In this document: positions 3,220-45,631 of the stretch, one piece after another
Layout: the number at the start of each line of letters is the position of its first letter
How positions within the stretch are numbered: the first letter of the stretch is position 1
IMG/VR virus record: IMGVR_UViG_3300038468_000190
Location: 1 to 64,000 of that record
Direction: 5' to 3' (one strand)
Source of the DNA: a virus
DNA length: 64,000 nt
The notes under the pieces: model-generated
Seen by the model: only the letters and a program-made list of their open reading frames with translations
Told to the model about the DNA's origin: nothing
Database searches by the model: none
Program-made: the position numbers and the translations under genes

Positions 3220-3422
3220 GAAAACTCCGTCACGCACACGGCGTCGTCTGCCGTGACTTCGCCCACGACGCCGCGCCGGTGCTCTTCGGACAGGAGCGCC
3301 TTTTCGACCGTGTCCGCACAGTCCTGCGCCGCCTGGCACTTGGCCGCGAACGCCCCGTCCGCATCGACGAGCAAGTCGACCGTGTACTCGGCGCGCACCT
3401 TGACCTTGTAGAGCGCCATCAC
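3216..3422 (-). CDS. Hypothetical protein
   Basis: Coupled to both neighbours by 4-nt overlaps. Confidence 0.65.
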   Translation of the reverse strand: MMALYKVKVRAEYTVDLLVDADGAFAAKCQAAQDCADTVEKALLSEEHRRGVVGEVTADDAVCVTEFS

Positions 3423-4036
3423 GCCGCCTCCTTCGAACCCTCGAAGTGCTTACGCAAGACCTGGTAGGCCAGGTTGATCTTCTTCAGTCGCGCTTCATTC
3501 CGGGCGCGCTCGCGCGTCGATTGCGGCCTGTCGGCGTTGTGCTCGAAGGCGAGCTTCTTGTACGCCGCCCGGATCTCCTCCCAGCTCGCCGAGCGCTTGA
3601 GGCCGAGCGTTTTGAGGGCCGCTCGGATCTCCGCGTCCGTCTCTTTCGGTGGCGTGTACTGGCGCTTGTCCTGCCGCGCCCGCGCCTTGGCCTCCCCGAT
3701 GCACGGCTCGCAGATGGCGCCGGCGAAGTAGTCGACGCGGCAATGCGCGAGGCAGCAGGGCCTGCCGCAGACGTCGCATTCGGTGACGGCGAAGTTTCGG
3801 CAGGGACGAGGCGCGCTCTTCGACACATCCGGAGACGCGCACGTCTCGCCCTTGGCCACGATCGGCGTCCAGGCGATGAGGGCGTTCTGGGTGAGAAGGC
3901 GCGCCCACTCTCCGAGGACGCCGAACGCGTCGCCGACGGCTCCGGTCCGGACGTGCACTTCTTCCGACAGGACGGACGCAACCGCGCCCCAGGGGATCTT
4001 CCCTACTTCGCGCCGGAACTTCTCGAAGAGATCCAC
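3419..4036 (-). CDS. Zn-finger + degenerate J-domain (DnaJ-like) protein
   Basis: CDVCGRPCCLAHC...CEPC; TLGLKRSASWEEIRAAYKKLAFEHNADR...KKINLAYQVL, with HPD replaced by NAD. Confidence 0.8.
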   Translation of the reverse strand: MDLFEKFRREVGKIPWGAVASVLSEEVHVRTGAVGDAFGVLGEWARLLTQNALIAWTPIVAKGETCASPDVSKSAPRPCRNFAVTECDVCGRPCCLAHCRVDYFAGAICEPCIGEAKARARQDKRQYTPPKETDAEIRAALKTLGLKRSASWEEIRAAYKKLAFEHNADRPQSTRERARNEARLKKINLAYQVLRKHFEGSKEAA

Positions 4037-4040
4037 GTCC

Positions 4041-4547
4041 TCACTTGTGGAACAAGTAGCCGAGGATGAAGCCGGCAGCGACGCCGCCCCCGATGCCGAT
4101 GAGCATGGAGCTTCGTGCGTTCATGGTCGCGACTTCGGGAGCGACGGCGGCTTCCGCCCCGATGCCGGAGAAGTACTCGCCGACTCCGGAGAAGTACTCA
4201 CCCATGCCGGCGGCCGGCGCGAAGTACTCGCCCATACCGCGCATCGCGCCCTGCTTCTCGGCGCCCCACTTCCAGGAGGCCCCGAGCAGAAGCTGGCGAT
4301 TCGGGCCGTTGTTCGGCTTGAGAGCCCACTGCTGGACGGCATTGATGAGCCCTTTCTCAGCCGCGGTCGGGCGCACCCTGTTCTTCACGAACCATCCGCC
4401 CCAGCTCCAGGACGTTCCCAGGACCGTTTGCTGCGCAGTTCGATCGCTCGGCGCCTGGGACCACATCGTGAGCGCCCGGCCCATCGCCGCATCGAAGGGG
4501 TTCACGGCGGGTCCGCCGCGGCCGACTGCTCCTACTCCGGTGAACAT
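4041..4547 (-). CDS. Tail-anchored protein with G(M/V)GEYF repeats
   Basis: Start MFTGVGA at TGATG overlap; duplicated LG(T/A)SWxWG unit; 3x GxGEYF; C-terminal TM. Confidence 0.8.
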   Translation of the reverse strand: MFTGVGAVGRGGPAVNPFDAAMGRALTMWSQAPSDRTAQQTVLGTSWSWGGWFVKNRVRPTAAEKGLINAVQQWALKPNNGPNRQLLLGASWKWGAEKQGAMRGMGEYFAPAAGMGEYFSGVGEYFSGIGAEAAVAPEVATMNARSSMLIGIGGGVAAGFILGYLFHK

Positions 4548-7904: not shown

Positions 7905-8050
7905 CCCGGCCCCCTGACTTCAGCCCAAGAGGCCAGCCGGACGCCGGTTCCCGAGCAAGACTCGGCATCCCCCATGTCCGACAGGGGTGCGGTCGTCCGT
8001 GCCCGCTGAAAGAGCGACAGCGCACGGCTGGCCTCTTGGGTTGAAATCAC
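7898..8050 (-). CDS. Possible 50-aa protein
   Basis: GTGA-coupled start that fills the gap in the operon. Confidence 0.35.
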   Translation of the reverse strand: MISTQEASRALSLFQRARTTAPLSDMGDAESCSGTGVRLASWAEVRGPGW

Positions 8051-8958
8051 CTGGGTCCTCCCCCGAGAGATCCTGGGCCGCCGCTCGCATTCGAGAGGGG
8101 CTTCATGCACTCCATCATCGTGTTGAGCCAGAGCTCCGGCATCAGCATGCCCGCGATGTCGTACTCGATGAAGGCGATCGGGCTCGGCACCGGACGAAAG
8201 ACCACGCAGCGCACCTGAAACGTCGCCCCGGGCCGCACGATCAGCGTGAACGGCACGCCGAGCGGTCCGTAGCGCCGAGGCCTTTGGGGCTGGAGCTGGT
8301 CGCCGGCGCCCGCGGCGGCGGCAAAGCTCGTTGCCGCCGCGAGATTGAAGCGGGAGTTATTCTGCAGGCCGAAGGCGCTCGCGAGGGCGGGCGGAAGCTC
8401 GGAGATACCGCCGATGGGCGGCGTGAAGGCTTCCTGAAACGTCTGAATCGGCACCGGATCGAGCTGGTAGGTGAGATTTGCGAGCTGCCGCTGATCGACC
8501 GTGGGAAGGAACCCCATGATCGAGCTGAAGCGCTGCGACTCGACCGGTACCGTGTCTCCCGGATCGATCCCGCTGAAACGAAAGACGTTCGCGCGAAGAT
8601 CGATGAGCAAAAGACAGAACGTGTCCGGCACCCGGAAGGCCCCGAGCTCGAACGTGAACGGATTCGATGGGCTCACCGACGGAAGGAACATCCCCTCCTC
8701 CGGCAGCCGCCTGTACAAGAACTCGAACGGCGTCACTTCCGGATGGACGAGGAGCGTGTTCAGGGCGCCGCCCGCGAGCTGGACGCGCTGCGCGCCGCAG
8801 CCCGGACTCATGTGCGCCCCGGGATCCATCGGCCCTGGAGGCAAGCCCGGCTCCTGCCACGGGTCGAGGACAGGCGCGGGCGAGCTCCTCGGCGGCAACA
8901 CCTCGGGGAGCCCCAGGCTTCTGACCTGCCGAGTACTGAGAACGGGTTTGATCGCCAA
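8047..8958 (-). CDS. Beta-rich virion protein, candidate single jelly-roll (minor capsid/penton)
   Basis: Alternating-strand segments PFEFLY, FTLIVRPGATFQVRCVVF, FIEYDIAG; third gene of the capsid cluster. Fold is inferred. Confidence 0.5.
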   Translation of the reverse strand: MAIKPVLSTRQVRSLGLPEVLPPRSSPAPVLDPWQEPGLPPGPMDPGAHMSPGCGAQRVQLAGGALNTLLVHPEVTPFEFLYRRLPEEGMFLPSVSPSNPFTFELGAFRVPDTFCLLLIDLRANVFRFSGIDPGDTVPVESQRFSSIMGFLPTVDQRQLANLTYQLDPVPIQTFQEAFTPPIGGISELPPALASAFGLQNNSRFNLAAATSFAAAAGAGDQLQPQRPRRYGPLGVPFTLIVRPGATFQVRCVVFRPVPSPIAFIEYDIAGMLMPELWLNTMMECMKPLSNASGGPGSLGGGPR

Positions 8959-8966
8959 CCGCGCTC

Positions 8967-9962
8967 CTACGTCATCCGCACCGGCCCCGGCGGCTGCACG
9001 ATCTTGATGCCGTGCATGCCCACGATGAGGATCGCGTCGGGCAGGCGCGTAATAGGATCGGTCGTCGCATCGGGATCGAGCTCGTCGTTGATGCCCTCGT
9101 GCACGTCGTACTGACTCGACAGGAACGGAAAGAGGCCGCCCGCAGCGTAACCCGAGAGGTTTCCCGCGGGGGGGTTACTCACGTGGGTCGGCGTCACCTT
9201 CCACTGAATCGTCTCACCGCGCTCGAAGAAGTCCAAGGCTCCGAGCTGGAAGGCGCTGTTGATGCTCTCCGAGTAGAAGGCGCTCGGAATGCCGCCCTCG
9301 GTGTTGTCGCGCGGGTATCCGGCGCCTTGGTTCAGCATCTGGATGAGGAAGTCGCCTTCCATCGACCGGAAGCCGGACATGTTCGAGGGGGAGGCGACGA
9401 TGGGAGCGCCCGTGCCCGGAGGGGCGATGCCCGCCGTTGGTTGGAAAACGCCCGCGCCGGCGTCGTTCAAGTCCCACGCCGAGTGCATCGGACGAAACCG
9501 ACCGAAGGAGCGACCCTGAAAGACCGCCTGCTCCTGCGTCACGGGATCGACGCGCCGAAACTGAAAGGCCGACTGGAGCGTCGCGTAGCGCGCGACGCCG
9601 ACGAAGGGGCCGTCCTGCGAGACGCTCTTCGTGCCCTGGGCCTGCGAAATCGAATTCGAAGCGATCGGGATCGACACGACGAAGTCGAAGGGGATCCTCC
9701 GACCTGGAATCGATTCGATATAGCGCACGCGCTCGTCGACACCGACCGATCCCGAGCCGTAGCCGCCACCGCGAGCCGACTGGATCTTCTCGAGCGCGTC
9801 GGCGAGCGCTTGCATCTCTCGCTGGTGTCGCTCGTTCTCTTGCTTGACCTGGGCGACGCCGCCCTGCGCGCCCGTAACGGCGCTCTTCATTTCCCTGAGC
9901 TCTCGGGCGAGGTAGCCGACGCCCTGCTGGAGCTCGCCGATGATCCGTCCAAAATCAGCCAT
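8967..9962 (-). CDS. N-terminal coiled coil + beta-rich domain, candidate second jelly-roll capsid protein
   Basis: PFDFVVSIPI, DGPFVGVARY, FFERGETIQWKVTP, ILIVGMHG. Fold is inferred. Confidence 0.5.
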   Translation of the reverse strand: MADFGRIIGELQQGVGYLARELREMKSAVTGAQGGVAQVKQENERHQREMQALADALEKIQSARGGGYGSGSVGVDERVRYIESIPGRRIPFDFVVSIPIASNSISQAQGTKSVSQDGPFVGVARYATLQSAFQFRRVDPVTQEQAVFQGRSFGRFRPMHSAWDLNDAGAGVFQPTAGIAPPGTGAPIVASPSNMSGFRSMEGDFLIQMLNQGAGYPRDNTEGGIPSAFYSESINSAFQLGALDFFERGETIQWKVTPTHVSNPPAGNLSGYAAGGLFPFLSSQYDVHEGINDELDPDATTDPITRLPDAILIVGMHGIKIVQPPGPVRMT

Positions 9963-10071
9963 CTTGAAAGTGCCTCCGTGAGGAGTACCGGACGGCGCGG
10001 GCCTTTCGAGCGCCGCGCCGTCCGTGCCTTACCGGGGAAGAGAGCCCGGGCCCCGGCGACCCGGGGAGCGA

Positions 10072-10875
10072 CTACTGGACGTCGCGAGCGAAAAGTCCAT
10101 CGAACGTGAACTGGATCACCTTGTTCACGCCGTCGGGCGTATTCAAATTCGATTGGAGCGACAGCATGTTCCGGCCGTTGCCGGTGACCGTCGTGCCAGC
10201 GATCTGACCGTTGCCGCCGTCGGGCAGCGGGTTGATCTCCGCCACGCATTTGACGTTCTGCCGGGGAGGCAGAAGGATCGCGCGCGCGAGCCGGAGAATC
10301 GCCGTGTGGTCCGGCGTCCCGTTGTCGAAGTGGATGAGGTCCGACGAGCCGCCGAGGTCGCCCCAGAGGCCGCCGCCGTCCGGGAAGTACTTCGTCGGCA
10401 TGTTCGTGATGGAGAACTTTTCTCCGGTACCATAGCTCCAGTGCAGCTGCTCTTCAGCTTGCCAATAAAGCCTGTATACGTCCTCCGTCGAGCCGGGGTA
10501 GTTGAACGCGCCCGGGCCGGCGATAGCGCCGTTCGGGTCGGCTCCGCCCTGCGAGAAGAACGCCGCCGCTCCCGCCTGGGAGAAGTCGCCGTTGTTCTTG
10601 ATCGCGCCGTTCGCGAAGCCCGTCGCCCGGATCTGCGGATTGCGGAACCACACGAACACGCGAAGCGCGAGCGTCACGTGGCTCTGGTCGGACGGCAGCG
10701 TCGACCCGTTCTGCAGGTTCGTCAGGGCGTTGATGTCGTCCTGGCGCGCGGCATTCGTGAAGAGCGCCGTGCGTTGATTGACCTGCTGGGTGTTGCCGCC
10801 GAGACCGGCGGTGCGGACGAGCGTGTCGTAGAAGGGCTGATGCACACGCTCTCTCACGTTCGTGAGTTTTGCCAT
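10072..10875 (-). CDS. Candidate major capsid protein (single jelly-roll type)
   Basis: QPFYDT, LALRVFVWF, ILLPPRQNVKCVAEI, VIQFTFDG strand pattern; strong AAAGGAAA RBS, long leader, downstream GC hairpin. Confidence 0.55.
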   Translation of the reverse strand: MAKLTNVRERVHQPFYDTLVRTAGLGGNTQQVNQRTALFTNAARQDDINALTNLQNGSTLPSDQSHVTLALRVFVWFRNPQIRATGFANGAIKNNGDFSQAGAAAFFSQGGADPNGAIAGPGAFNYPGSTEDVYRLYWQAEEQLHWSYGTGEKFSITNMPTKYFPDGGGLWGDLGGSSDLIHFDNGTPDHTAILRLARAILLPPRQNVKCVAEINPLPDGGNGQIAGTTVTGNGRNMLSLQSNLNTPDGVNKVIQFTFDGLFARDVQ

Positions 10876-11058: not shown

Positions 11059-13539
11059 CTAGCCCGAAAGCACTCCGTTTCCGCCGGGGCCCTGGAGGAT
11101 CCCAGCCGGGAGCTCGCTCTCCGTATAGGCCGCGTCGGCACTCGTCGTGCCGGCCCAGAGCGGCCCACTCGGCACCCACTGGCTCTGCGTGCCGACCGTG
11201 TACTCGCTGAAGCCGCCGTCCGACGCCTTCGCTGCGAAGTACTCGCCCATGCCCGCAGCCGCCTGACGGTACCGGCCCATGCCGGCGGCCGCCTGACGGT
11301 AGCCCTGCCCCAAACCCGCCGCGCTCTCGGCGAGCGTGAGCGCGTCGTCGAGGTTCGCGTCGGGGCGGAGGCCGTCGTCGATGGGAAGATTTCCCATGTG
11401 GCTCTGCGACGGTTGCAGGGCGAGCGGGCCAGCCTTCTCGTAGTGCCCGACGCCTTCGACGCCGGGACCCGCGAAGTACTCACCCATACCGCTCTGCGCC
11501 GCGAAGTACTCGCCCATGCCGGCTGCGGCCTGCTGGAACTGTCCGACAGGTGCGTAGTGCGGCATGATCGAGGTCGCGTGACGAGCCACGCCGAGGCCGT
11601 GCATCGGCCGGCGCCGCCGCCCGCGGGTACCGCGTAGCGCGTAGGCCGCGCTATTCTGGTAGCCCTCGAGATAGGACAGGACCTCCGGCTGATTGGCCAC
11701 GGTGAGGATCGTGTGGACCAGGTTCTGGAAGAAGGAGAGCGCGATGCCGGCTCCGATGGAGTTACGGCTGTCCGGCTTCATCGGCACCTTGGACAGGAGC
11801 GCGATGCCCGCGAGACCGAGGAGGCCTCCCGCGATCGGCTTCTGCCAGGTTCCGATGATCGAGGGCTTTCCGTCCGCGGTCATCGTCGCCATGCCGGCGA
11901 CGGTGATCTGGCCACTGGTTGCGTCGGTCTTCGTCAGCATCCGGAGCGCGAACCCCGTCAATGCCTTGTGACCGAAGAAACCCGTGAGCGCGAAAAACCC
12001 CGTCTTCGCGAGCGTCTGGAGGTCGCTCATGAAGGCGTTGCGCCGGTAGCTCCGGCGGCGGCGGTTATCGCGCATCCGGCGGCGTCCGTGACGGCGGCGG
12101 CGCCGATTTTCGGCGTACCGGCGGCGGCTCCGACGGCGGCGTCGGCGCGGATTCTCCTCGTAGTGGCGGCGGCGGTTTTTCGCGAGGTAGAGGCCTCGCC
12201 GCAAACGACGGACCTTCCTCCGACCGATCCTCCGCGGATGACGGGCAGTCGAGCGACGACGACGCTTGTGCGACCGGCGACGCGAATGCGACCGGCGCTT
12301 TCGCGCATGCGCCTTACGCCGACGGCTCGAGCGACGACGACGAGCAGGCGACGCCTTTCTCTTGCGACGCCGGCGCGCGACGCGCGCGTGCGAGCGGCGC
12401 CGTCCATGACGACGCACCCTACGAACCTTCCGGCGTCCCGCACGGCGGGAACGCTTGTGCCCTTTTCGCTTCCTTCGTCTTGCCACTTTTCTTGCTCCCG
12501 CGTTCGGGGTGAACGCATCACCGCTCCGCTCGACGCGAGCGGCAGCACGTTTACGACGCTGTGCGATCCGTTCCCGAGCGCGCCCGTAACGAGAGGACGT
12601 CTTGTAGTCCTTCGCACTGACGGCGCCGGCAATGGCCCACTGCGGAATCCTGCGGCGTTTGCCGCGCTTGGCCTTGTACGCGTACGTGTAGCGACGCCGG
12701 CCCGAGCGCGGATCGGTTGCCCGGATCCTCCGGTACGGCCCGTACGCCACGCGCACGCGATGAGTCTTGCCGCGACGAGCGCGCACCTTTCGGTACTGCT
12801 TCGGAAAGCTCGCTCGGCGCTTTCGCCTGCGGATCGCGGCCCGGCGCTCGGGCGTCATCTTCGCCCGGCGTGCCGCGGCGCGTGCCCGGCGCTTCTGTGC
12901 TGCGGCGGCGCGGCGGGCCCGGCGAGCGGCGCTCGCCTGTTTCCGCTTTTCGGCCATGCTCGATCGGCGAGCCTTTCGCTTAGCGGCCGCCGCGGCGCGC
13001 TTGGCCTTTCGCTTCTGAGCCGCCTCGCGGCGCCGCTGAGCCTTCTTGCCGTAGATGCGCTCGTGCCCCGAGCGGTACGACGGGCTCGCTACTTGAGCCG
13101 GGCCTTCGTTTCGGCGCATCCGGCGGCGGCTCTTCGGAAACTTCCGAGAGGCGCTTCGCATCGCCGCTGCCTTCGAGAGGCCGCGACGGCGCGCTGCCTG
13201 AAACGCCGCGAGGCGTTTGCCCGCCCGGCGGCGGGCGGCGTTCGAGGTCATGCGACCACTGTTCTTGTTCATGCGGCGCACGAACTTCGCCCGGTGCACT
13301 TTGTGTCCCATGCTTCGGTTCTCCATGAGCCGGCGAGCGCGTCGGAGTCTCTCTGCACGGGATTTCCCCGCGCTCCGCGCGCGTGCCGAATACGCCCCAC
13401 GGCCGTTGACCGCCGAGAGCGTCGTCACGCCCATCGGGTTAGGCCGATAGCCGCGCGGACGCTTTGCCACGCGATATGAGCCGACGTCCGCTTCCCGTAT
13501 TGGAAACGCTCGACCGTATGCTCTGTGCCTTCCTGCCAC
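11059..13539 (-). CDS. Arg/Lys-rich protamine-like core protein with hydrophobic segments and GMGEYF-repeat C-terminus
   Basis: About 500 aa of poly-Arg tracts, three hydrophobic stretches, then AAAGMGEYF repeats; directly upstream of the MCP candidate. Start uncertain. Confidence 0.75.
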   Translation of the reverse strand: MAGRHRAYGRAFPIREADVGSYRVAKRPRGYRPNPMGVTTLSAVNGRGAYSARARSAGKSRAERLRRARRLMENRSMGHKVHRAKFVRRMNKNSGRMTSNAARRRAGKRLAAFQAARRRGLSKAAAMRSASRKFPKSRRRMRRNEGPAQVASPSYRSGHERIYGKKAQRRREAAQKRKAKRAAAAAKRKARRSSMAEKRKQASAARRARRAAAAQKRRARAAARRAKMTPERRAAIRRRKRRASFPKQYRKVRARRGKTHRVRVAYGPYRRIRATDPRSGRRRYTYAYKAKRGKRRRIPQWAIAGAVSAKDYKTSSRYGRARERIAQRRKRAAARVERSGDAFTPNAGARKVARRRKRKGHKRSRRAGRRKVRRVRRHGRRRSHARVARRRRKRKASPARRRRSSRRRKAHARKRRSHSRRRSHKRRRRSTARHPRRIGRRKVRRLRRGLYLAKNRRRHYEENPRRRRRRSRRRYAENRRRRRHGRRRMRDNRRRRSYRRNAFMSDLQTLAKTGFFALTGFFGHKALTGFALRMLTKTDATSGQITVAGMATMTADGKPSIIGTWQKPIAGGLLGLAGIALLSKVPMKPDSRNSIGAGIALSFFQNLVHTILTVANQPEVLSYLEGYQNSAAYALRGTRGRRRRPMHGLGVARHATSIMPHYAPVGQFQQAAAGMGEYFAAQSGMGEYFAGPGVEGVGHYEKAGPLALQPSQSHMGNLPIDDGLRPDANLDDALTLAESAAGLGQGYRQAAAGMGRYRQAAAGMGEYFAAKASDGGFSEYTVGTQSQWVPSGPLWAGTTSADAAYTESELPAGILQGPGGNGVLSG

Positions 13540-38721: not shown

Positions 38722-40401
38722 CTACGCGAGCCGTCCGGCGCGGACGACGACGTCGATGAGGGGAGGCGGCTCGAAGTCCCGGTCGGGCTCCATCCCGAAC
38801 ACCTGGAGTTCTTCGGCCGGCCCTTCGGCAAACGCCATCTGCTCTGGCGTGTACGATTCGAAGTATTCGCTGTCGGTGTCACCTGGACGAAGCGTGAGAA
38901 ATCCGAGTAGCGCGCGCAGCGTCTCGTCCGAATCGAGCGCGTGAAGCGGCGAGGCAGAAAAATCTTCTCCGACGAAGAGCTCCTCGTCGTCCGGCATCGG
39001 CGTCCTGAATGCATAGCCGAGGATGCTCTTACCGTAGGAATCGGTGCGGTGCGTGTCCCAGACATCGAGTCGATAGCCGGTCTCGCCGAGCTCGACGGCG
39101 CGCAGGATGCCCTCGTCCGGGATAGAATTCACGGCGAAGTGATGCGGCTTGGCGTAGTGCTCGCGACGCTCCTCCGGATCGAACGGTCGTTCTTCTCGAC
39201 GGCTCCGGGCTTCCTCACGCCGGATGAGCTCTCGGGCGGACGGGAGCTCTCGGCCACGGAGCGTCGCCTGGCCACGAGAGTGGCCACGGCGCGGCGGGGG
39301 ATTGGAGAGCATCCGCGCGCGGCGCTCGCGTTCCTCCGCGCTCATGAGTTCGATCTCGACATCTCGGTAGCCCTCGGCACGAGCATGTCCGAGCGCCCAG
39401 TCTAGCCTGGCCTGACCGCTGCCCATGCCGACGGTGACACGCTCACCGTACTCTGGCGCGAACGCCGTCACGACGAACTGCTGCCCCGCTCCGACGCCGA
39501 CATGTTCCTGACCTCGCACTTTGATCACTCGCGCGTTCGCGGCCATGCCGACGTCCGACCTCGCCCCGAACTCTCGCTCGTAGATTTCCTGGGCCCGCCG
39601 GAAGATCCGCTCCTTGGTCGCCGCCGGGAGCTTCGTCTTTTCCTGGTGGGCGCGGGACATCGCGGCCCGAAGGTGCGCCTTGTCGATACGGCCGGAGCGA
39701 TTCTTGTACGGCAAGTGCCGGAGCGTCAGCGGATGGCTCCGGCCGAGTCGATCGCGACGTCCACCCGGCTCGACGTGCAAGAACGCCGAGTCGGGGAGAC
39801 TGTTCACGTAGGCGCGTGACCACTTCGCGTTCTCGGTGAGCCCCGCTTCACGCACGGTGCGCTCGTCCTCGCCGATCCGAAACCGCGTCGGCGCTTCTTC
39901 GGTTTCGGGCTCGACGTCGTAACGCGTGGGCGCCTCGAGCGTCATCGGCTCGATGTCGCGGAGGGTCGGCGCGGCCACCGTCTCGGCGCGCGACCCGGGC
40001 GCTTCGGTCGCCCCGTACTGCTCTTCGGCGAGCACGAGCGCGACCTCGAGATCTTCGTCCTCGTCGCGGACGACCGCCCCGTCGCCGTGGAGCTCCACCC
40101 CGAAGAGATCGCCGTTCGCGGAGATACTCAGCAAGGCGCGCTCGGCGGCGAGCCACTTCTTCACCCTCGTCGCGAAGCGCGTCCGGATGTGTCCCGTTTC
40201 TGCGCGCGAGCCCATGGCGTGGTTCAGGGCGTGCTCGAGACTCTTGTGCTCGCTCGAGCCGCGGCGCGGATCGCGTGGCGTCACGAGGAACTTGTCGTCG
40301 ACCACGCTGATGGTCAAGCGCTCGTCGTGCTTACCGAGCCACTTGAGCATCCGGTTTTGGAAGACCGGCGGGATGTCGTAGAGCTCGATGTCGTCTGCCA
40401 C
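38722..40401 (-). CDS. Multi-module (polyvalent-like) protein
   Basis: Duplicated N-terminal unit (KWL...ISxxxDxF...LExAL); WSRAYVNSLPDSAF...HLPY module; further modules after MAAN, MLSN and FAVN. Confidence 0.8.
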   Translation of the reverse strand: MADDIELYDIPPVFQNRMLKWLGKHDERLTISVVDDKFLVTPRDPRRGSSEHKSLEHALNHAMGSRAETGHIRTRFATRVKKWLAAERALLSISANGDLFGVELHGDGAVVRDEDEDLEVALVLAEEQYGATEAPGSRAETVAAPTLRDIEPMTLEAPTRYDVEPETEEAPTRFRIGEDERTVREAGLTENAKWSRAYVNSLPDSAFLHVEPGGRRDRLGRSHPLTLRHLPYKNRSGRIDKAHLRAAMSRAHQEKTKLPAATKERIFRRAQEIYEREFGARSDVGMAANARVIKVRGQEHVGVGAGQQFVVTAFAPEYGERVTVGMGSGQARLDWALGHARAEGYRDVEIELMSAEERERRARMLSNPPPRRGHSRGQATLRGRELPSARELIRREEARSRREERPFDPEERREHYAKPHHFAVNSIPDEGILRAVELGETGYRLDVWDTHRTDSYGKSILGYAFRTPMPDDEELFVGEDFSASPLHALDSDETLRALLGFLTLRPGDTDSEYFESYTPEQMAFAEGPAEELQVFGMEPDRDFEPPPLIDVVVRAGRLA

Positions 40402-44938: not shown

Positions 44939-45631
44939 TCAATCCTCGTCGTCGAGATGGAAGCCACACTCCTTCGGATCGCCGTGGATCCATCCGGTAC
45001 GCGGACTCCAACCCGACAGGGCCCCGGCGGGTACTATGCGCTGACATCGCCGGCACGGTAGCGCCCACTTCGACGGGCTCACGTGGCAGTAATGTTTCGG
45101 GTGACGCCCGTCGTCCGTGTCGAACATGCCAGGCCATTTTCCGTGGCCTGCGAAGTCGTCGGCGGGATCATTGGGGTTCAAACGGCGACCGCGTGAGCGA
45201 CGTTCGCGCTTTAGTTGCCAGGGTGAGCGAAGGTCCGCGTGCGGCATCACGAATTTCTGATCTAGATCTCGCCAGTACTTGTCCTGCTGCACGTCGCCCG
45301 CGAACGCCCATCCCAAGATCACGAAGAGCGGCGCCTCCCTCCCGCCGACGAGCACGACGACTTCGTCGTCCGGCGTGCCGTCCGTGAGCTCGATGCCCGC
45401 GACGGTCGACTCGACGAGCCGCGCGTCGAGCGAGCTCGGCACCTTGCCTACCTTCTTCCATGTGTCCCACCGCTCGAGTTTTTGAAAGGTCCCTTCCCAG
45501 CGCCGCCGGCACGCGAGCGAAATCGCCTTCTCGGCGATGGCCCGCTTCGGCCCCGTGTCACCACGCTTCTTGGCGGCGCGCCGCGCGGCGGCAATCTCGT
45601 CGAGAGTGAGGGTAATCGTGAATCGGGACAT
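44939..45631 (-). CDS. Hypothetical protein with C-terminal Zn finger
   Basis: 230 aa; CRRC...WIH...C. Confidence 0.65.
   Translation of the reverse strand: MSRFTITLTLDEIAAARRAAKKRGDTGPKRAIAEKAISLACRRRWEGTFQKLERWDTWKKVGKVPSSLDARLVESTVAGIELTDGTPDDEVVVLVGGREAPLFVILGWAFAGDVQQDKYWRDLDQKFVMPHADLRSPWQLKRERRSRGRRLNPNDPADDFAGHGKWPGMFDTDDGRHPKHYCHVSPSKWALPCRRCQRIVPAGALSGWSPRTGWIHGDPKECGFHLDDED

Follow-up and report, generated by a model that had tools for sequence, protein, structure and literature searches.

Why should almost every asparagine (Asn) in the arginine-rich half of a viral protein stand three residues behind a methionine, tyrosine, phenylalanine or leucine? The question is raised by a gene at 11059..13539 (-) of a 64,000-nucleotide stretch of viral DNA, called the window here, which is the first 64 kb of the 140,124-bp IMG/VR virus record IMGVR_UViG_3300038468_000190 and has a G+C content of ~66%. 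The gene starts with GTG and encodes 826 amino acids plus a stop codon; the N-terminal half of the product is basic and the C-terminal half is a membrane-type region with GMGEYF repeats. It belongs to what we term the virion module, a series of co-oriented minus-strand genes that runs from ~23.2 kb down to ~1.7 kb (window 1673-23177). A first-pass annotation, made from the letters of this DNA, had described the product as a membrane-tethered, DNA-condensing precursor that is cut after Asn into protamine-like peptides. We have found that the underlying hydrophobic-x-x-Asn motif is conserved in relatives of the protein and that its conserved sites lie between predicted structural units. The protein is most likely one of the basic core proteins of viruses, punctuated by a signal of the processing type, and the motif probably marks points of cutting or docking in a DNA-coating protein.

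A hydrophobic-x-x-Asn motif in the basic half

Residues 1-502 contain 165 arginines (Arg, 33%), 42 lysines (Lys) and 13 Asn and carry a net charge of about +189. Eleven of the 13 Asn have Met, Tyr, Phe or Leu (M/Y/F/L) at position -3, a residue class that makes up 8.4% of the region (binomial P = 9e-11), and 0-2 matches are obtained at any other offset between -6 and +6. The sites are YRPN34, LMEN74, MNKN93, MTSN100, MRRN144, FTPN346, LAKN455, YEEN463, YAEN478, MRDN492 and YRRN501, exactly the eleven tetrapeptides that the first-pass annotation had listed; the two Asn outside the motif are N45 (in VN45G) and N91. Since the codons vary between sites, a DNA-level motif can be ruled out and the signal lies at the level of the protein.

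Within the genome this bias is found in one protein. Among the remaining 183 predicted proteins 148 of 814 Asn (18%) fall into the motif, which corresponds to background, and the 826-residue protein is the sole outlier. A protein encoded at 38722-40401 had been thought to share the code, but only four of its nine Asn fit (uncorrected P = 0.048) and we do not maintain this claim. Hydrophobic-x-x-Asn beside an Arg/Lys-rich stretch occurs elsewhere in the genome at two places only, both outside the virion module: window 44939-45631 (-), with RRSRGRRLNPN followed by D, and genome 83400-83801 (+), with RARRKKALREN followed by P.

The motif is retained in relatives, as the first-pass annotation had proposed to check. 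Syntenic orthologues are present in seven IMG/VR genomes (63-138 kb), in which the gene keeps its place upstream of the capsid gene, and the bias is seen in all seven (P 4e-4 to 5e-10). A HMMER search with the non-repetitive C-terminal domain yielded 149 representatives at ≤50% identity, and the 95 long ones were used for motif statistics. In the basic part of these 95 proteins 615 of 1254 Asn (49%) have M/Y/F/L at -3, compared with 10% expected, and again offset -3 alone is enriched, all other offsets being at background. The preference at this position is specific: Met, Tyr and Phe are enriched ~6-fold and Leu 2.7-fold, Ile and Val are not enriched, and Arg and Lys are strongly depleted (36 Lys observed, 183 expected). 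Some distant members have Ala or His at -3 (ARRN, AAAN). The other flanking positions are also selective, with proline (Pro) 5.6-fold and glycine (Gly) 0.1-fold at -1, where hydrophobic residues are nearly absent, and Gly 0.2-fold at -2. The residue at +1 is G, A, Q, S, R or P, with P, Q, G and R favoured and Pro enriched 2.8-fold overall.

Four sites are positionally conserved, counted among aligned residues in a 97-sequence alignment. N34 of YRPN (residues 31-34, 13438..13449 (-); x-x-P-N34-P) is kept in 76 of 80 sequences and is mostly followed by Pro. N346 of FTPN (residues 343-346, 12502..12513 (-)) is kept in 78 of 94, with the family consensus F-[TV]-P-N-[RAK], and N455 (Phi-x-x-N455-R-R) in 63 of 85. 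The strictest is N501 in the junction motif YRRN (residues 498-501, 12037..12048 (-)), just ahead of the first hydrophobic helix: Asn is found in 96 of 97 sequences with a single His and never D, S or T, the consensus reads [YFM]-[RK]-[RK]-N501-[GAQDS]-F, and Y, F, M or L occupies -3 in 87 of 97. Together with G520, N501 is the best-conserved residue of the junction region. The remaining sites turn over while their density is maintained: the number of strict sites per protein has a median of 7 (range 1-17), and neighbouring sites lie at intervals of 5-25 residues without a strict period. P0128, P0142, P0147 and P0149 are members of the family with few motif sites.

Might the pattern then be a by-product of composition, of tandem duplication of an Arg-rich unit, or of a wrong reading frame? 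The last four sites (463-501) do lie in repeat-like Arg blocks, and the DNA is GC-rich and carries a long antisense open reading frame (ORF), 11713-13479 (+), that overlaps the gene. This ORF is, however, a by-product of the G+C content, and the frame 11059-13539 (-) is truly coding because substitutions concentrate at third codon positions; compared with three orthologues, 332 differences fall on the third position and 160 and 134 on the other two. The motif also stands in non-repetitive conserved blocks (N34, N346, N455), its enrichment at -3 alone recurs in the 95 representatives at ≤50% identity, and Lys, whose codons are also AT-rich, is depleted there. The statistics over the representatives, the varying codons, the conservation of sites and the third-position bias thus refute a by-product, and we give this explanation virtually no weight.

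Predicted architecture of the protein

An AlphaFold2 model built on the 97-sequence alignment has a mean predicted local distance difference test (pLDDT) score of 65, and individual parts of it are predicted with much higher confidence. The protein begins with a conserved N-terminal block (residues 6-50, 13390..13524 (-), GRAF.I...Y...PNP.GVT...VNGRG.Y), which is evident from the alignments and has low confidence in the model; it holds YRPN34, followed by Pro, and the invariant non-motif residue N45. Between MTSN100 and MRRN144 lie two confident basic helices at about 101-135 (residues 101-144, 13108..13239 (-); pLDDT 84-94). Residues 145-346 (12502..13107 (-)) form a predicted folded basic domain that ends in FTPN346, with pLDDT >90 over about 153-340; the model shows a basic helix 75 residues long and a sheet of five strands, besides further helices. 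The mostly disordered poly-Arg region that follows (residues 347-501, 12037..12501 (-)) contains five motif sites that delimit Arg blocks of 8-15 residues. Disorder is predicted for residues 344-349, 383-464 and 642-728.

The motif Asn are found at helix ends or at dips in confidence between units, that is in predicted linkers. MTSN100, MRRN144 and FTPN346 bracket both folded basic units, and YRRN501 marks the junction of the basic and the membrane part.

The first-pass annotation had stated that hydrophobic helices and GMGEYF repeats follow the basic part, and both are indeed present. Three long hydrophobic or amphipathic helices (500-535, 561-584 and 589-614) span residues 500-614 (11698..12042 (-); pLDDT 80-95, hydropathy), the first of which contains the invariant G520. 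From the model we take these helices to be the membrane anchor; strong hydrophobicity among them is confined to 569-587, and a basic RGRRRR cluster follows the third. Further downstream, a Gly/Ala/Gln-rich region with QAAAG(M/V/L)GEYF repeats (11236..11538 (-)) is found in this protein and its relatives, with three GMGEYF repeats at residues 674, 684 and 763, and a conserved tail (QSQW.P.GPLWAG ... PAGILQGPGGNGVLSG; 11062..11187 (-)) is seen in the alignments. The part after the junction comprises 325 residues in total. The same GMGEYF unit stands just ahead of the transmembrane anchor in a second virion protein, 4041-4547 (-). Within the QAAAG(M/V/L)GEYF repeats an AA|AG string resembles the cleavage site of LapG in LapA, and their conserved Gln could be a transglutaminase (TGase) donor.

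Database searches returned no known family. Pfam gave no match for the 826-residue protein and six neighbours, save one chance-level coiled-coil row for a neighbour; PHROGs gave none for the same seven proteins, and tblastn against 50,697 phage records found nothing. With the whole 826-residue model Foldseek produced E >1 throughout, with faint rows for Cren7 and Ku, and VIA-align generic coiled coils and helical bundles alone (Z ≤7). For residues 145-346 a PDB sequence search and the ESM Atlas gave nothing usable.

A probable membrane-tethered core protein

Composition, predicted anchor and position in the virion module make it fairly likely that the 826-residue protein is a membrane-tethered, genome-condensing core protein. 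The gene sits in a run of membrane-anchored virion-module proteins, directly upstream of the candidate capsid genes, and this order is kept in relatives. We infer that the protein is located in the virion and binds DNA. By calculation, ~1,500 copies of the basic half (+189) would neutralise a 140-kb genome. The virus itself is likely a tailless bacterial virus with an internal membrane and a genome of roughly 110-140 kb. Its core protein would be made as a modular precursor that consists of the N-terminal block, the folded units 101-144 and 145-346, the disordered poly-Arg region 347-501 and the membrane/GMGEYF part.

There are functional precedents for such a protein, by analogy, in the ascovirus protein P64 and in the core of the portoglobovirus SPV1. 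P64 is unusually large for a virion protein and very basic, has tandem basic repeats and condenses 100-200-kb double-stranded DNA in an internal-membrane virus (PMC6163548). Judged from the genes alone, size and composition of the 826-residue protein fit this type of large cationic condenser; the likeness, compared by description, lies in the unusual size and the strong basicity. In contrast to the protein described here, P64, from a eukaryotic virus, has been described as a virion protein of 64 kDa rather than as a cleaved precursor; it has no membrane anchor, and an Asn motif has not been reported for it. SPV1, of the Portogloboviridae, is tailless and icosahedral; its shell proteins are single jelly rolls, and it has an inner membrane and a core of DNA condensed by protein (PMC8459092). 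Mini-CRISPR arrays also occur in that family. The VP1 of SPV1, an archaeal virus of 20 kb, is a small protein of five helices (PMC12273771), and no match to VP1 in fold or sequence was obtained with Foldseek or VIA-align and the whole 826-residue model.

Function of the motif

Among the possible roles of hydrophobic-x-x-Asn we favour that of a processing site, cut by an enzyme or by the chain itself, a reading from the sequence that we would place somewhat short of an even chance. It is favoured because the fixed Asn, the hydrophobic class at -3 without beta-branched residues, the adjacent Pro and the placement in linkers are traits of protease sites that extend from P4 to P1. The tetrapeptide [M/Y/F/L, sometimes A/H]-x-[P/A/E/R]-Asn would then be a recognition signal in linkers, in which Asn occupies P1 and the hydrophobic residue P4. 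Cutting would release the basic domains and several protamine-like peptides of 8-15 residues from the membrane anchor, comparable to adenovirus VII and mu. The predicted products are 1-34, 35-74, 75-93, 94-100, 101-144, 145-346 and 347-455, together with four peptides (8-15 residues, +1 to +8 in net charge) and the membrane protein of 325 residues. Two simpler structural roles were considered and rejected: a generic helix cap is ruled out because the conserved Asn sites are never replaced by D, S or T, and a wedge on the DNA-facing side of a helix because Pro is enriched at -1 and +1.

The closest parallel is the maturation of the adenovirus core, where the adenovirus protease (AVP) cuts the core precursors pVII and pre-mu (pX) at sites with a hydrophobic P4 residue, following the consensus (M/I/L)XGG|X or (M/I/L)XGX|G (PMC4246237). 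Both systems share an Arg-rich protein, a hydrophobic residue four places before the cut, here a proposed one, and short basic peptides as products, which are predicted in our case. There are differences as well. The AVP consensus does not occur at the sites described here, where Gly is shunned at -1 and Asn is the fixed residue, no Peptidase_C5 is encoded, and the protein is fused to a predicted membrane anchor. The parallel is thus one of analogy and not of homology.

A candidate for the cutting enzyme would be a 179-residue protein of TGase fold encoded at 22638..23177 (-), which matches PF01841 (Transglut_core) with 30.8 bits against a cut-off of 23. Its gene lies 9 kb upstream of the core gene, and likewise ~9 kb from it in the one relative checked (G001). 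The triad Cys103-His136-Asp153 is invariant in 25 sequences, and the protein is present in 5/5 relatives and conserved at 60-97% identity in >300 clusters, above the surrounding structural proteins. The AlphaFold2 model (pLDDT 87) retrieves with Foldseek 3kd4 (6e-5), 3isr (9e-5), the PNGase 2f4m (7e-4), the LapG structure 4u65_E (8e-4) and 4fgq (2e-3), so that putative Cys proteases, PNGase, LapG and pseudomurein endoisopeptidases are its structural neighbours. LapG is a site-specific protease that cuts LapA between two Ala (PMC3032545). The viral enzyme resembles LapG/BTLCP proteins in being a TGase-fold protein of ~180 residues with a Cys-His-Asp triad, although the similarity in fold is modest (E 8e-4 to 3e-3, template modelling score ~0.5). 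This is the sole protease-like gene conserved in the lineage, and we infer a link to the Asn motif. An M41-like peptidase was rejected as processing enzyme, being below the Pfam cut-off and absent from 5 relatives. The corresponding ORF encodes a stand-alone FtsH-type protein of 224 residues at genome 127049-127723 (-) (L018:3049-3723; 28.6 bits) and adjoins glycosyltransferase and collagen-repeat genes.

Self-cleavage by Asn cyclisation would be an alternative, less likely chemistry. Asparagine peptide lyases include the self-cleaving coat proteins of nodavirus, tetravirus, reovirus (mu1, Asn-Pro) and picornavirus (VP0), and Asn-Pro and Asn-Ala junctions are known among them. The protein described here shares with them an invariant Asn at the junction (N501, 96/97) and a hydrophobic segment on its C-terminal side, a likeness in conservation only. 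In asparagine peptide lyases, however, a single site is embedded in a folded catalytic environment, whereas the strict sites here number 7 per protein in the median and lie in segments of low pLDDT.

Several observations weigh against cleavage. Pro follows N34 in 50 of 79 sequences, and few endopeptidases can cut a bond that precedes Pro. The cleavage code of AVP is common to seven virion proteins, while the motif here is private to one: in the 25 other virion-module proteins it is neither in excess nor avoided (21 observed, 21.2 expected), and only 4 of their 28 conserved Asn fit it. Arg tags attached through the motif were not seen on the other virion proteins either. For clan CD Asn-specific peptidases of families C13/C14 (PF01650, PF00656) a search of the genome gave nothing at E ≤1, although the host might supply such an enzyme; adenain Peptidase_C5 (PF00770) and Ulp1-like C48 (PF02902) had none at E ≤1 in the complete 140-kb record, and no HK97-type protease (S78) was matched in the genome. 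The LapG site A|AG, with a product beginning AGPSAAG, resembles the QAAAG repeats of the C-terminal domain and not the Asn motif, and the assignment of the TGase-fold enzyme to the motif is weak for this reason. P64, a large cationic condenser, acts uncleaved (PMC6163548). Genes for the separate pieces did not turn up in IMG/VR scans with stand-alone-looking C-domain proteins. A search for split genes with a degenerate DNA pattern recovered already known contigs alone, and a search for shorter proteins with the central domain found none. The short database proteins P0135 and P0075 do have an internal Met, right behind the junction Asn, as their first residue; P0135 shares a 90% cluster with the fused P0154, however, and P0075 with the fused P0155, and the short entries of the family may be gene-calling artefacts rather than split genes. 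For many other short entries the first residue is the Met of an MRRN-type motif or lies close to where the C-domain begins.

Nearly as likely as a processing signal is an uncleaved linear motif in a protein that stays whole, a multivalent docking site or hinge whose Asx-turn-like kinks would contact DNA or a partner in the capsid or membrane, separate the Arg blocks and tie the nucleoid to the membrane. The enrichment of Pro on both sides of Asn is what one would see in a turn or an extended docking peptide, and the confinement to one protein is expected of a structural feature rather than of a shared protease code. The broad spacing without strict period and the lack of an Asn-specific protease in the genome agree with it as well, and so does the presence of ascovirus P64 in virions as a 64-kDa cationic condenser. 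In nucleoproteins of archaeal viruses Asn has been reported to be enriched, with Arg and Lys, among the DNA-contacting residues (PMC12273771). However, a strict Asn combined with a hydrophobic -3 class that omits Ile and Val would be more usual for an enzyme pocket than for a turn. The sites also fall where folded units begin or end and where the basic part meets the membrane part, and no binding partner came to light. A further alternative is that the TGase-fold enzyme modifies the Asn without cutting the chain, either by deamidation to Asp as a charge switch that would weaken DNA binding, or by Asn-Lys isopeptide cross-linking of the core. The TGase fold acts on side-chain amides, the neighbour PNGase (E 7e-4) attacks the side-chain amide of Asn, the triad of the viral enzyme is invariant and the strict conservation of Asn suggests an Asn-specific chemistry. 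Lys-Asn cross-links occur in HK97 capsids. We know of no enzyme of the TGase family, however, that uses an unglycosylated Asn as acyl donor, and the enzyme and the core protein are linked solely by their co-conservation in the module; we regard such a modification as highly improbable.

The membrane-tethered, DNA-condensing precursor of the first-pass annotation thus survives in part. Its architecture and gene position fit, and the motif is private, conserved and placed at linkers; a simple protease code is disfavoured, since Pro occurs at +1 and only one protein carries the motif. A wider version of the processing reading would be an Asn-directed maturation code in large tailless membrane phages, read by a LapG/PNGase-like enzyme of TGase fold or by Asn cyclisation. 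Under this code a membrane-anchored polyprotein would be converted into folded basic proteins and mu-like poly-Arg peptides, and a 140-kb genome would be condensed without a packaging motor. We hold this version to be unlikely; if true, it would be a virion processing specificity that is not known in any phage. A literature search found no account of the virus lineage and none of virion cleavage after Asn in phages.

In a large bacterial virus that is tailless and membrane-lined, more than 100 kb of DNA must be enclosed, and the obvious candidate to condense it is the 826-residue protein. If the motif of this protein is cut, the specificity of the protease would be new and phages would have a counterpart of adenovirus core maturation; if it serves in docking, it would reveal how a nucleoid is stitched to the viral membrane. 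Either way the motif is a marker for the core proteins of a poorly known virus group, of which metagenomes contain at least 149 clusters (50% identity); wetland and soil samples are among the sources of its contigs.

Genomic context

The candidate capsid genes lie directly downstream of the core gene. Three genes at 8047..10875 (-) are candidates for jelly-roll capsid proteins, and the synteny holds in 7 relatives. The same module encodes >15 proteins, most of them small, that carry one hydrophobic or transmembrane anchor each, at the C-terminus; going by their sequences, so many single-anchor proteins would be typical of internal-membrane viruses. Of five related virus records checked, four (111-138 kb) carry direct terminal repeats and appear to be complete genomes of the lineage. 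Other recognised genes of the window encode DnaB, ThyX, a NUDIX protein and a DnaJ-domain protein. A DnaJ (J) domain, scored at 34.8 bits by Pfam, forms the C-terminus of a 205-residue virion-module protein, 3419-4036 (-). An 837-residue protein (23811-26324 (-)), encoded where the module has its upstream limit, has an apiosidase-like glycoside-hydrolase domain, a collagen-binding-type C-terminal domain and a hydrophobic N-terminus. At genome 128641-139972 (-), two GT4-type glycosyltransferases adjoin three collagen-repeat proteins of 821, 368 and 258 residues, an arrangement that suggests glycosylated collagen-like fibres.

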